Below are positions 3,267 through 28,288 of a DNA stretch of 30,924 nt, piece by piece. Position 1 is the stretch's first letter. Each line of letters starts with the position of its first letter. The position numbers and the translations under genes are program-made. Below the pieces are notes generated by a model. The model ran no database searches, was not told the origin of the DNA, and worked only from the letters and a program-made list of their open reading frames with translations. This stretch comes from Candidatus Jorgensenbacteria bacterium RIFCSPLOWO2_12_FULL_42_11 (lineage in GTDB: Bacteria; Patescibacteriota; Minisyncoccia; UBA6257; MFKM01), in the NCBI GenBank assembly GCA_001779575.1, contig MFKM01000030.1, positions 1-30,924 of the forward strand, read 5' to 3'.

Positions 3267-3563
3267 ACCCCCACACTCAAAAACTACTATGTTTTATTTC
3301 TATATCTTGCAATCAGTTAAAGATAAAGATTTGTATTTCGGATTTTCTTCTGACTTGCGACAAAGAGTAAAAGAACATAATAAAGGTCGCGTTCTTGCAA
3401 CCAATAAACGTAAACCACTGCGATTGGTATACTATGAAGCCTATCTTTCAGAAAAGGACGCCAGGAACAGAGAGCGACAAATTAAACTGCGCGCTCAAGC
3501 ATTTACTTCACTGAAACGTAGAATTAAAGATAGTATTTTACAGTAGTTTTTGAGTGTGGGGGT
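3267..3563 (+). mobile_element. Putative mobile cassette: GIY-YIG gene enclosed by a perfect 22-bp terminal inverted repeat
   Basis: ACCCCCACACTCAAAAACTACT (3267-3288) and its exact reverse complement AGTAGTTTTTGAGTGTGGGGGT (3542-3563). The ATG follows the left arm directly and the TAG lies inside the right arm. Mobility is inferred; no target duplication was seen. Confidence 0.55.
3289..3546 (+). CDS. Small GIY-YIG nuclease family protein (UPF0213-like)
   Basis: 85 aa; FYFYIL...LYFG (GIY-YIG variant), DLRQRVKEHN, KPLRLVYYEAY, ARNRERQIK. Confidence 0.88.
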   Translation: MFYFYILQSVKDKDLYFGFSSDLRQRVKEHNKGRVLATNKRKPLRLVYYEAYLSEKDARNRERQIKLRAQAFTSLKRRIKDSILQ

Positions 3564-4119: not shown

Positions 4120-4238
4120 ATGAATTACAAAACATCGCGAAATCAGAAATTTAAGTTTCAAGATTCCGGGCAGGCCCAGTAGTGAAAACTCGACTGCTTT
4201 TATAATTAAATTCAAAGGGTTTCACGCTAGAGCGTTAA
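4120..4238 (+). pseudogene. Two pilin signal-peptide relics
   Basis: 4120-4182 reads MNYKTSRNQKFKFQDSGQAQ* (SGQA resembles the GQALVE cleavage motif). 4182-4238 reads (GTG)KTRLLL*LNSKGFTLER* (KGFTL-E motif with stops). Confidence 0.55.
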
Positions 4239-4263
4239 CAAAAAATTGTTTTGAAGCTTCAAC

Positions 4264-4923
4264 ATGAATCAAGGTCATAAAATAAAAGAGAATTTAATAA
4301 GTCGAGTTTCTACTACTGGGCAGGCCTTAGTTGAAATTCTTATCGGATTGGCCGTGGCCGGAACTTTAATAGGCGCGGCGACTACGGCGTTGGTGGCGAT
4401 TTTGCGCTCCGGCTTGGAAACTAAAAATTTTCAAATCGCTTCTTCTTTGGGCCAAGAATTGATGGATAATGTCAAAACGGTGGCCGAAGCCGATTGGCGC
4501 GACATTTACGATTTGAGCAAAGGACAGAACACTCAATATTACGCAATGGCTTCGGGGACAGCGTCTATTATTTTTTCCGGCGTCGCCACATCTACCGTCG
4601 GCAACATTACTTATACCAAATTTTTTTCCGTAGAGAATGTTAAACGCTTAAGTGGAATTATCAGCGTTGATTTCTTGGCCGTTGATGATCCTTCCACCCA
4701 GAAAATTGTCAGCCACGTCCAGTGGCCCAGCGCCGGCCGGACTGCCGAAGCGGTTTTGACGGTTTATTTGAGCCGCTGGCGCAATTCTATTTCCCGCCAG
4801 ACCGATTGGTCGGGAGGAAGCGGTCAAACGGGGCCGGTTTCCGAATTAAATAAAAAATTTGCCTCCTCCACGGGCATTGATTATTCTTCAAGCACGGGTT
4901 CAATTATTATTCAGGGATTTTAA
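4264..4923 (+). CDS. Minor pilin-like protein
   Basis: 219 aa; TG|QALVEILIGLAVAGTLIGAA class III signal motif with Glu at +5. Confidence 0.82.
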   Translation: MNQGHKIKENLISRVSTTGQALVEILIGLAVAGTLIGAATTALVAILRSGLETKNFQIASSLGQELMDNVKTVAEADWRDIYDLSKGQNTQYYAMASGTASIIFSGVATSTVGNITYTKFFSVENVKRLSGIISVDFLAVDDPSTQKIVSHVQWPSAGRTAEAVLTVYLSRWRNSISRQTDWSGGSGQTGPVSELNKKFASSTGIDYSSSTGSIIIQGF

Positions 4924-26158: not shown

Positions 26159-26788
26159 ATGAAGGTAGATTTATTCAATCAAAAAAACGAAAAAACCGGA
26201 ACGCTGGACTTGCCAGACGCCGTTTTTGGCGTTGAATGGAATCCGGATTTGGTTCATCAGGCGTTGACGGTTCAAGTAGCCAATCGAAGGAAGGTTTTGG
26301 CCAACACCAAAGACCGGAGCGAAGTCAGCGGCGGCGGTCGGAAACCGTGGCGGCAAAAAGGCACCGGCCGGGCAAGACACGGCTCCACCCGTTCGCCTTT
26401 ATGGAGAGGCGGCGGCATTACTTTCGGTCCGATTAAAGAAAGAAATTTTTCCAGAAAGATTAATAAAAAAATGAAACAATTAGCGATTTTGGGAATTATT
26501 TCAAAAAAACTCGGCGAGCAGGAAATAAAAATCATTGACACTCTTGAATTGAAAGACCGCAAAACCAAAAATTTAGCCAACTTGGCGAAAAATTTTATTT
26601 CGTCAAAAGAAAGTCTTTTATTAATTCCGGCTAAAGAAAATAAAAATATTTATTCGGCGGCCCGCAATCTGGCGAAAGTCGGCGCGTTAAGCCCGGAGTC
26701 GCTTAACGTTTACGATTTATTGAAATATCAAAAAGTTCTTTTGGATCAAGGAGCCGTTGAATCAATAGTCAAACATTACAAAATATGA
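26159..26788 (+). CDS. rplD: 50S ribosomal protein L4
   Basis: [36 protein letters not shown]. Confidence 0.98.
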   Translation: [209 protein letters not shown]

Positions 26789-27024
26789 CCCAGTACTACA
26801 ACTCCGATGGTATTCTTCTAAGACAATACGTTATCAGATAGAAAGATGAAGTTTGTTTTATTGGTAAGGTCTGGGAGTTTTAATAAAACGACAGAAGAAT
26901 ACATTGAGACAAAAATTATTAAACAAGATATTATGAATAATCAGAACAAAAATAATCAAGTCGCATTAAATCTAATCAACTCCAAAATGAGGAATTTTTG
27001 TCTTTCGGAGTTGTAGTGCTGGGT
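26788..27024 (+). mobile_element. Unclassified 237-bp inverted-repeat element / structured RNA, copy 1 (at the rplW start)
   Basis: Arms ACCCAGTACTACAACTCCGA (26788-26807) and TCGGAGTTGTAGTGCTGGGT (27005-27024); flanked by ATG on both sides (26785-26787, 27025-27027); paralogous to 27307-27544. Confidence 0.7.
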
Positions 27025-27300
27025 ATGAAAATGACGATTAAAAAACCGATGATCAGCGAGAAGACGATGGAAATGGGGAAAATCCGCAAATATGTTTTTT
27101 TGGTTGACCGTCAGGCAAACGCTTATGAGGTTAAGAAAGGAATAGAATCCATCTACAAAGTTAACGTGGAATCGGTCAATGTTATAAATCAAAAAGGAAA
27201 AATCAAGAGGTCGGGTCGCGGCGTTAGTCGCCGGCCATCTTCCAAGAAAGCCATTGTGACTATCAAAAAAGGACAGACGATTGATGTTTTGCCAAAATAA
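27025..27300 (+). CDS. rplW: 50S ribosomal protein L23
   Basis: KKPMISEK, YVFLV, ANAYEVKKGIE, VESVN, KKAIVT. ATG 27025 is used; the track start 26998 lies inside the element. Confidence 0.95.
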   Translation: MKMTIKKPMISEKTMEMGKIRKYVFLVDRQANAYEVKKGIESIYKVNVESVNVINQKGKIKRSGRGVSRRPSSKKAIVTIKKGQTIDVLPK

Positions 27301-27306
27301 AATATG

Positions 27307-27544
27307 CCCAGTAACTCAACTCCGATGGTATTCTTCTGTGATAATGCGTTGTAAGATAAAAAGATAAAGCTTATTTTATCGAATATATTCAAAGAACCCA
27401 ACAAAACAAATAGAAGAATACTTCGAAACAAAAATCATTAAACTAAGATATATGAAAAATAAAAAACAAAACAAATCAGTCGAATCAATATCAACCAACT
27501 CCAAGACGAGAGATTTTTGTCTTTCGGAGTTGAGTTAACTGGGT
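27307..27544 (+). mobile_element. Unclassified 238-bp inverted-repeat element / structured RNA, copy 2 (at the rplB start)
   Basis: Arms CCCAGTAACTCAACTCCGA (27307-27325) and TCGGAGTTGAGTTAACTGGGT (27524-27544); flanked by ATG (27304-27306, 27545-27547); alignable with copy 1 along most of its length. Confidence 0.7.
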
Positions 27545-28288
27545 ATGACTACGGTTTTAATTAAAAGATTAAAAAAGGCGGCCGGCAGAAATTCCCAGGG
27601 GAGAATAACGGTTCGTCATCAAGGCGGCGGGCATAAGAAGCTTTACCGCTTGGTTGATTTTAAGCAAAATAAATTTGATATTCTCGGCCGAATTGAATCG
27701 CTGGAATACGATCCTTACCGTAGCGGCTTAATCGCTAAGGTGGTTTACGCTGACGGCGAGCGGCGTTATATTTTAGCTTCCCACGAAATGAAGGTGGGCG
27801 ACGAAATTATCACTTCGGCCGATGCTCCATTAAAACCAGGAAATCGCACTTTGCTGAAACGTATTGCGGTAGGCAGCTTCGTTTATAATATTGAATTGTC
27901 GCCGGGCAAAGGCGGCCAATTGGTTCGTTCCGCGGGCTTAGCCGTTCAGGTTCTGGCCAATGAGGAGGGCTATACTCATCTGAAATTAGCTTCCGGAGAA
28001 GTTAGAAAAGTTTTAGGGAGCGGTTACGCCACTCTTGGCCAGGTTTCCTATCCGGAACACAATTTGGAAGTAATCGGAAAAGCCGGCCGTTCGCGCTGGC
28101 TGGGAATCAGGCCGACTGTTCGCGGTACGGCTATGAATCCCCGCGACCATCCCTACGGCGGCGGTGAAGGTCGTCAGCCCCGAGGCACTCGCCGACCCAA
28201 GACCAAATGGGGCAAGATTACCGGTGGCCGCAGAACCAGAAACAAAAAAAAATGGTCAAGCAAATTAATTCTTGAAAGAAGAGAATAA
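27545..28288 (+). CDS. rplB: 50S ribosomal protein L2 (N-terminally short, 247 aa)
   Basis: GRNSQGRITVRHQGGGHK, EYDPYRS, GKAGRSRW, RPTVRGTAMNP-DHP-GGGEG. Confidence 0.98.
   Translation: MTTVLIKRLKKAAGRNSQGRITVRHQGGGHKKLYRLVDFKQNKFDILGRIESLEYDPYRSGLIAKVVYADGERRYILASHEMKVGDEIITSADAPLKPGNRTLLKRIAVGSFVYNIELSPGKGGQLVRSAGLAVQVLANEEGYTHLKLASGEVRKVLGSGYATLGQVSYPEHNLEVIGKAGRSRWLGIRPTVRGTAMNPRDHPYGGGEGRQPRGTRRPKTKWGKITGGRRTRNKKKWSSKLILERRE

Follow-up and report, generated by a model that had tools for sequence, protein, structure and literature searches.

Putative remnants of a very small GIY-YIG nuclease element on the start codons of rplW and rplB in a Patescibacteria bacterium

The Ssn family comprises small nucleases that cut single-stranded DNA next to a repeat, in a layout that its authors liken to an insertion sequence (IS) (Chenal et al. 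2025, PMC11893778). The present analysis concerns two inserts, hereafter element 1 and element 2, which lie on the start codons of rplW and rplB in Candidatus Jorgensenbacteria bacterium RIFCSPLOWO2_12_FULL_42_11 (contig MFKM01000030.1, of which the 30,924 nucleotides analysed are called the window), within an S10-type operon that runs tuf, rpsJ, rplC, rplD, rplW, rplB, rpsS and onward. Judged from their homology and layout, both inserts are almost certainly non-autonomous, decayed copies of a very small selfish element of Patescibacteria, whose intact form would consist of a single gene, encoding a 94-aa GIY-YIG nuclease of one domain and of the Slx1/UPF0213 type, flanked by terminal inverted repeats of 17-20 bp. 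The element would integrate into NATG, nearly always the start codon of a gene, and in the orientation of that gene; the left ATG would retain the host initiation context and serve as the start codon of the nuclease, while the right copy would remain the start codon of the host gene. For this explanation as a whole, comprising the identity of the element, the borrowed ATG and expression of the host gene by read-through, we estimate a probability of roughly 0.8.

The resemblance to Ssn lies in a small single-domain GIY-YIG gene bracketed by its own hairpin-forming repeats (NTS/SRM) and in the many gene-less repeat copies in the genome. In contrast, PMC11893778 reports neither a duplicated target nor insertion on start codons, nor the borrowing of a start codon, and does not mention Patescibacteria. 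The comparison covered the architecture, Ssn corresponding to CDD cd10448 and the protein here being nearest by sequence to UPF0213/SLX1. Literature searches turned up no account of a GIY-YIG element that has inverted repeats and sits on start codons; this is apparently an unpublished kind of mobile element, and the NTS-ssnA-NTS architecture of Ssn is its nearest counterpart found.

Other described systems share further traits. The Correia/NEMIS elements belong to the MITEs (miniature inverted-repeat transposable elements) and are short, non-coding and co-transcribed with adjacent genes; they have terminal inverted repeats, a target duplication and a long mRNA hairpin, but they are DDE-derived, show no tie to start codons and have TA as their duplication, whereas here the parent encodes a GIY-YIG nuclease only and a start codon is the exact site, in sense orientation, of 68 of 72 copies. 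Free-standing and intron-borne GIY-YIG homing endonuclease genes (I-TevI, T4 seg/mob; PMC2988022) are selfish nuclease genes of the same superfamily, situated between or inside essential genes and reliant on host expression signals; they differ in having a separate DNA-binding domain, in copying only into the cognate empty allele and in lacking inverted repeats and a target duplication, whereas the element here occupies about 50 genes. IS200/IS605 and REP/RAYT elements (cited in PMC11893778) have hairpin ends, a short asymmetric target of 4-5 nt, a fixed orientation and gene-less derivatives, but they use an HUH tyrosine transposase, make no target duplication and carry subterminal hairpins instead of one terminal inverted repeat. 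Regarding translation, termination-reinitiation coupling involves a stop codon a few nucleotides before the next start, and T4 gene 60 bypassing and caulimovirus shunting involve matched codons and a stem between take-off and landing; unlike in these systems, the coupling open reading frame (ORF) here would come from the relic of a mobile element, and no nascent-peptide signal is possible at initiation.

Identity of the inserts and of their parent element

Both inserts start with CCCAGTA and finish with CTGGG, their 17-18-nt ends being inverted repeats that pair as helix P1, and they are 72-77% identical to each other, the range being set by the alignment used. Element 2 is 92% identical to one copy in a genome of the same genus (G004). 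The original prediction, made from the sequence of the window, had both inserts sitting on a start codon with a duplicated ATG, which the sequence confirms (TATGA and TATG, respectively), and the positions that it gave for the upstream ORFs (uORFs) opened by the left ATGs, for the P1 arms, for the internal CAACTCCA and for the uORF peptides are all exact (Table 1). The stop codon of rplD (TGA, 26786-26788) overlaps the left ATG of element 1 as ATGA, the left ATG of element 2 lies 3 nt downstream of the rplW stop (27298-27300), and the N-terminus encoded by rplW agrees with its same-genus orthologues at empty sites.

The family comprises three size classes, of 133-160, 235-258 and 313-317 nt, all bounded by a common left end of ~22 nt and a common right end of ~19 nt, so that, as in MITEs, the terminal inverted repeats are common to the inserts and to a longer coding element. 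Each of the four largest loci (L183, L201, L007 and L173) contains a single intact ORF of 94-95 codons, which starts at the left duplicated ATG, passes through the left repeat (encoding MPSNSTP) and continues as MVFFYTYVLLSL. One of the encoded proteins, P0001 (L183:733-1017), belongs to the GIY-YIG superfamily (Pfam PF01541, E 1.2e-17, 64 bits with a cutoff of 22.6), the closest solved structures by sequence being the UPF0213 proteins EF2693 and BH0048, and SLX1; the window copies retain only the first ~11 residues in frame. Element 2 aligns over its full length to the intact loci with ~62% identity and one deletion of ~80 nt, element 1 is homologous along its length to the intact 313-317-nt elements, and the copy at L156:1584-1818 is an intermediate form between the intact elements and element 2.

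Set beside the N-terminus of the intact relatives (MPSNSTPMVFFYTYVLL), uORF2 (MPSNSTPMVFFCDNAL) is, to judge from the alignment, a truncated N-terminus of the nuclease, and uORF1 is the same stretch one base off. The latter is out of the nuclease frame because the duplication of element 1 is 5 bp, and the two uORFs differ in frame because that of element 2 is 4 bp. In all, 158 homologues were found; many of them start with MPSN, and since several (P0053, P0065 and P0097) have no internal Met, the flanking, host-derived ATG must be their start codon. A search of 301 genomes in the order gave homologues in 222. On ileS, infB, a lexA-like gene and some 20 more genes there are intact but diverged relatives, which have other repeats in the same layout, in which an ATG is followed by the repeat and the ORF, whose stop is usually inside the right repeat, and then by the (N)ATG of the host gene.

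Several IS families typically combine terminal inverted repeats with a duplication of 4-5 bp, and GIY-YIG enzymes, which hydrolyse DNA, are not known to perform strand transfer. Both points would suit ordinary MITEs of a DDE-transposase IS in which the GIY-YIG ORF is mere cargo. That origin is nevertheless highly improbable, given that a GIY-YIG ORF of ~94 aa is the only one ever found between the repeats, in 72 copies and 30 diverged loci, none of them above 330 nt, and given that repeats and nuclease co-diverge across families.

Insertion on start codons and choice of target

The source assembly (G000; 529 kb, 87% complete) carries nine copies, eight of which have (N)ATG at both flanks and an ORF from the right ATG; the hosts of these eight are rplW, rplB, rpsH, rbfA, secG, a gene for a holin-like membrane protein and two genes for large membrane or surface proteins. 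At least 18 further copies are present in G004, and the exact 22-nt left end was found on 53 metagenome contigs. A degenerate 16-base pattern, scanned across genome contigs, gave only chance matches in unrelated phyla, and a scan of viral contigs with the 22-mer gave none. When copies with identical flanks from this genome, G004 and the 53 metagenome contigs were merged, 72 with distinct flanks remained, among which orthologous sites are counted separately and about 50 different genes are involved.

As foreseen in the original prediction, these other copies are tied to ATG: 68 of the 72 lie on an ATG that opens a long ORF. The ORFs were followed for up to 133 codons, and most stay open that far. 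All 68 copies have the sense orientation of the gene, and in 61 of them the ATG of the restored site is the first start codon after an upstream in-frame stop. Insertion on start codons with duplication of the ATG is far above chance. The base N before the ATG is identical on both sides, including cases of AATG, CATG and GATG, so the duplication is of 4 bp (NATG, with matching N in ~60 copies), sometimes of 3 or 5 bp (TATGA in 6 copies). The four exceptions have the flanks CAAG, CAGG (two copies with different flanks) and CATA; together with CGTA, which flanks one copy of this genome missed by the pattern search, most of these words are one change away from CATG.

The latter copy (C19 8196-8423 in G000, L018:1491-1718) is the only one in the genome that is off an ATG, and it lies antisense in the last codons of the RNase Y gene, where its arm swaps GCT CGT TAA for GCC CGG TAG. 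Because the arm thereby restores Ala-Arg-stop, selection filters the insertions that survive. Elsewhere, at L013:1461-1742, two short forms of 139 nt stand head to tail with only TATG between them, and this repeat-TATG-repeat junction, which is nearly palindromic, may model a junction recognised by the nuclease.

Single-ATG empty sites, which had been predicted to exist in relatives, were found for both inserts. Between rplD and rplW, the same-genus genomes G001, G002 and G004 read ...tATGA(A/G)AATGA..., with a single ATGA overlap, and G003 has a spacer of ~35 nt in place of the overlap; between rplW and rplB, all four (G001-G004) read ccaaaaTA(A/G)-n-ATG, with a single ATG shortly past the rplW stop. 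In a related strain, whose flanks are roughly 95% identical and which is represented by contigs from two groundwater runs of another study, position 26783 is joined to 27024, which omits 26784-27023 (240 nt) with 5 nt of microhomology, and the same contigs continue into element 2. Element 1 is therefore polymorphic among close relatives. Like MITEs, the inserts thus have a target duplication, and their empty sites are precise. Two other readings, a ribosomal leader and a stand-alone gene for a structured RNA, were rejected, as the inserts are absent from same-genus genomes.

Of the ~11,450 ATGs that this genome contains, 525 are start codons; another 1317 are intergenic without being starts, and none of these carries a copy. 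An NATG target combined with the loss of intragenic or otherwise lethal insertions is for this reason no sufficient cause and cannot explain 68 of 68. Local sequence was rejected as a sufficient cause as well: the profile of the insertion sites has T at -1 (74% vs 44%) and AT-richness and no other motif, and a matrix of +-21 nt that catches 80% of the sites cannot separate starts from other ATGs, passing 213 intergenic and 367 intragenic non-start ATGs vs 253 starts. Orthologous start codons are occupied across species whose flanking genes are 71-88% identical, sometimes by forms of different size, and the identity between elements (90-95%) is often above that of the flanks, for example in the pairs L024/L171, L026/L157 and L156/L162. 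This suggests either old, persistently occupied sites whose residents have been replaced or recurrent hits on the same sites.

Fold of the inserts and expression of rplW and rplB

Both inserts are predicted to fold strongly as RNA, with -71.4 kcal/mol for element 1 (z -5.65 vs shuffles) and -65.8 kcal/mol for element 2 (z -6.39). Three helices are formed: P1 by pairing of the terminal repeats, P2 by the Val-Phe-Phe codons that follow the internal Met with the Glu-Glu-(His/Tyr) codons, and P3 by GACAAAAATC with GATTTTTGTC. In the 22 long forms the helix blocks are 90-100% conserved and the remaining columns 40-80%. Compensatory changes separate the intact from the long forms, P2 showing a switch of G-C to A-U and P3 two pairs of this kind, and one-sided changes gave G-U 13 times vs A-C 5 times, an excess that weakly hints at constraint at the RNA level. 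Co-variation in P1 is also expected from two ends that co-evolve with one enzyme. No Rfam 15 family matched the window at the gathering threshold, and none matched 26700-27620 at E<=1.

No Shine-Dalgarno enrichment was visible upstream of 381 long ORFs or of 58 insertion-site genes, these regions being simply AT-rich; G is flat upstream of genes, at 13-19%, and falls to 0-10% at -12 to -7 of the insertion sites. Initiation presumably needs an unpaired AU-rich region. Yet P1 begins 1-2 nt past the left ATG, and its end lies 1 nt short of the right one in both elements of the window. Lacking a Shine-Dalgarno signal and with a stable P1 beside both ATGs, P1 must be opened for initiation.

One way of opening it is suggested by the intact relatives, in which a single ORF extends from the left ATG to the nuclease stop, 0-33 nt short of the host ATG, in the geometry of termination-reinitiation. 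The long forms carry a short ORF (sORF) of 26-28 codons, the end of which lies 6-8 nt ahead of the host ATG. In 20 of 22 long copies this sORF is free of premature stops despite 7-26 substitutions over 60 variable nt, and it is strictly intact in 15 copies vs 5.9 expected under random substitution, statistics that overstate independence because the copies share descent. Complete ORF relays from the left ATG to the host ATG exist in 14 of 21 long forms vs 6.3 in shuffles. Element 1 has such a relay, from uORF1 over 4 nt to a 56-codon ORF, whose final 26 codons are the conserved sORF, and over 8 nt to rplW; element 2 holds only the last leg, the sORF with a 6-nt gap to rplB. Ribosomes would presumably initiate either at the left ATG or within the A-rich unpaired interior, at an internal ATG, and would melt P1 as they translate the element up to a stop codon a few nucleotides short of the host ATG, at which they would re-initiate. 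We put the chances at about even that this coupling is the main route of host-gene expression; initiation during transcription is a live alternative.

Beyond the shared descent of the copies, several points weigh against the explanation as a whole. No intact cognate nuclease gene was found in this 87%-complete assembly, and P1-P3 could owe their conservation to a role of the DNA in mobilisation, through single-stranded DNA hairpins or binding of the nuclease, rather than to an RNA function. In element 2 a gap of 97 nt separates the uORF2 stop from the start of the sORF. The short forms (133-147 nt), which are the most numerous, have complete relays in only 6 of 43 copies, below the 19.5 of shuffles, and the ATG of a five-codon mini-ORF (MSELS), present in 27 of 34 short copies, is conserved below the interior average. 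Because of this deficit and the mini-ORF, relay coupling cannot be the general answer for the family, and a relay of short ORFs as a general rule is ruled out for the short forms. Coupling by translation through the insert would nonetheless be the best single mechanism for elements 1 and 2.

Short forms without relays would be served by cleavage of the RNA, in which an RNase III-type enzyme cuts the 17-20-bp P1 and so releases the downstream mRNA, to be translated by itself behind a leader that is very short and unstructured. The P1 duplex is long and near-perfect and ends 1 nt before the ATG, and with no Shine-Dalgarno signal in the genes here a short leader could suffice. RNase III processing has a precedent in the Correia elements of Neisseria. 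We consider this route improbable, since it leaves the open sORF of the long forms unexplained.

Slightly more credit, though still little, is due to the first of two routes in the original prediction, in which the uORF is a control device, upstream ribosomes open P1 and CAACTCCA is the alternative partner in a switch. In every copy the left ATG abuts the 5' arm, so a starting ribosome must melt P1, which is strong enough to block both ATGs, and the left ATG is kept in 21 of 21 long forms on start codons. That ribosomes entering there open P1 also fits the single ORF of the intact relatives, but in these the ORF is simply the nuclease gene, of which the uORFs are the frameshifted or truncated N-terminus, and the notion of a purpose-built control is not borne out. 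Among decayed copies uORF length decays freely, between 3 and 49 codons in two frames, as in a decaying gene, which agrees with the earlier view that the peptide is not the conserved feature; with presence, position and length compared across copies, only the left ATG is conserved. Evidence of selection points instead to the downstream ORF (26846-27016 in element 1, 27452-27538 in element 2). The mimic of the arm is real in this subfamily, occurring in most long forms with variants that still pair through G-U, but it is not general: in 28 diverged relatives it is no better than in shuffles (mean z -0.6; 5 of 28 at p<0.05). Nothing was found that points to regulation, neither a signal- or ligand-like feature nor an Rfam match, and the unrelated genes downstream of the elements (for L23, L2, S8, RbfA, SecG and membrane proteins) speak against a dedicated regulator.

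The second route, in which a ribosome with initiator tRNA hops or shunts over the closed stem from the left AUG to the identical right AUG, is the least probable of all those considered. Matched AUGs do flank a stable stem that places them side by side, and hopping could accommodate copies with a 5-bp duplication whose stop comes 3 codons past the left ATG (MTQ-stop). In contrast to programmed bypassing, the stops here come after 18 codons in element 1 and 16 in element 2, and a nascent-peptide signal is impossible because no nascent peptide exists at initiation. Hopping is further at odds with the intact elements, whose nuclease has to be made by ordinary elongation that begins at the left ATG, and it would make intragenic insertions tolerable, yet there are essentially none on internal codons.

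Returning to translation through the insert, a more tentative extension, less likely than not, would be that the conserved P1-P3 fold and the open sORF form a portable module for initiation and coupling that is under selection, start codons being found either by sensing of translation starts or as long-lived sites whose residents are replaced by family members.

Features of the window and significance of the elements

The coordinates of the features are given in Table 1.

Table 1. Features of the rplD-rplB region, in window coordinates
Feature	Position	Strand	Basis or remark
rplD (L4)	26159-26788	+	Pfam PF00573, E 7.5e-66
Element 1, left TATGA (5-bp target duplication)	26784-26788	+	left ATG 26785-26787
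uORF1, 18 codons, opened by left ATG	26785-26841	+	reads MTQYYNSDGILLRQYVIR
Element 1, 235 nt, putative decayed GIY-YIG element, long form	26789-27023	+	homology to element 2 and intact elements
Element 1, P1 arms	26789-26805 / 27007-27023	+	sequence, RNA fold
Element 1, 56-codon ORF	26846-27016	+	begins 4 nt past uORF1 stop; TAG inside right arm, 8 nt before rplW ATG
Element 1, internal CAACTCCA	26977-26984	+	copy of inner 5' arm, able to pair with GGAGTTG of 3' arm
Element 1, right TATGA copy	27024-27028	+	sequence, related-strain junction
rplW (L23)	27025-27300	+	Pfam PF00276, E 2.1e-26
Element 2, left TATG (4-bp duplication)	27303-27306	+	left ATG 27304-27306
uORF2	27304-27354	+	reads MPSNSTPMVFFCDNAL; putative truncated nuclease N-terminus
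Element 2, 237 nt, putative decayed GIY-YIG element	27307-27543	+	homology, fold
Element 2, P1	27307-27323 / 27526-27543	+	fold; compensatory changes
Element 2, P2	27327-27337 / 27411-27420	+	fold; compensatory changes
Element 2, P3	27427-27435 / 27512-27520	+	fold
Element 2, sORF, 28 codons (MKNKKQNK...DFCLSELS)	27452-27538	+	TAA in right arm, 6 nt before rplB ATG
Element 2, internal CAACTCCA	27496-27503	+	sequence
Element 2, right TATG copy	27544-27547	+	sequence
rplB (L2)	27545-28288	+	Pfam PF00181 and PF03947

Related elements also occur elsewhere in the window. At 4175-4320, inside a prepilin gene, there is a gene-less element of 146 nt from a related subfamily, with a CAGG duplication (4171-4174 / 4321-4324) and with ends formed by CCCAGTAGTGAAAACTCGACT and its inverted complement, like the repeats of an intact GIY-YIG element in L239. 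Insert and duplication add up to 150 nt, so the frame of the prepilin is kept. The old leader now meets stops at 4180, and a new in-frame leader begins at an internal ATG (4264); its last residue is Gly, encoded by the terminal GGG of the element, just before the mature end QALVEIL. Judged from the sequence, an element-encoded leader peptide seems to have replaced that of the pilin.

An intact gene for an 85-aa GIY-YIG protein (Pfam E 1.1e-13) lies at 3289-3546, upstream of a pilin gene, and exactly fills a perfect 22-bp inverted repeat (3267-3288 / 3542-3563). The ATG of this gene is its own and directly follows the left arm, and the element is not on a start codon. A similar element in another genome (L241) has ACCC...GGGT ends and the same right flank, gctcg, as the element at 3267-3563. 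In the ribosomal protein operon itself, the ORF for L3 (25709-26155) encodes only 148 aa, with both ends apparently intact; in most bacteria L3 usually has ~210 aa.

With ~315 nt and one protein of 94 aa, the parent element would rank among the smallest self-contained mobile elements known, and its presumed strategy, landing on a start codon and taking over the initiation site of the host for its own gene, was not found described. Its restriction to start codons (68 of 72) makes the choice of target by a nuclease that consists of the domain only a concrete and testable question. In the S10 operon, 235-237 nt of strongly folded RNA now stand between each of two essential genes and the context in which it was originally initiated, yet both must still be made. 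With no Shine-Dalgarno signal visible, this offers a natural setting for testing how ribosomes select start codons and get to them past a stable structure. If the inserts do act as portable modules, the synthesis of the essential L23, L2, S8, RbfA and SecG would run through the remains of a selfish element.

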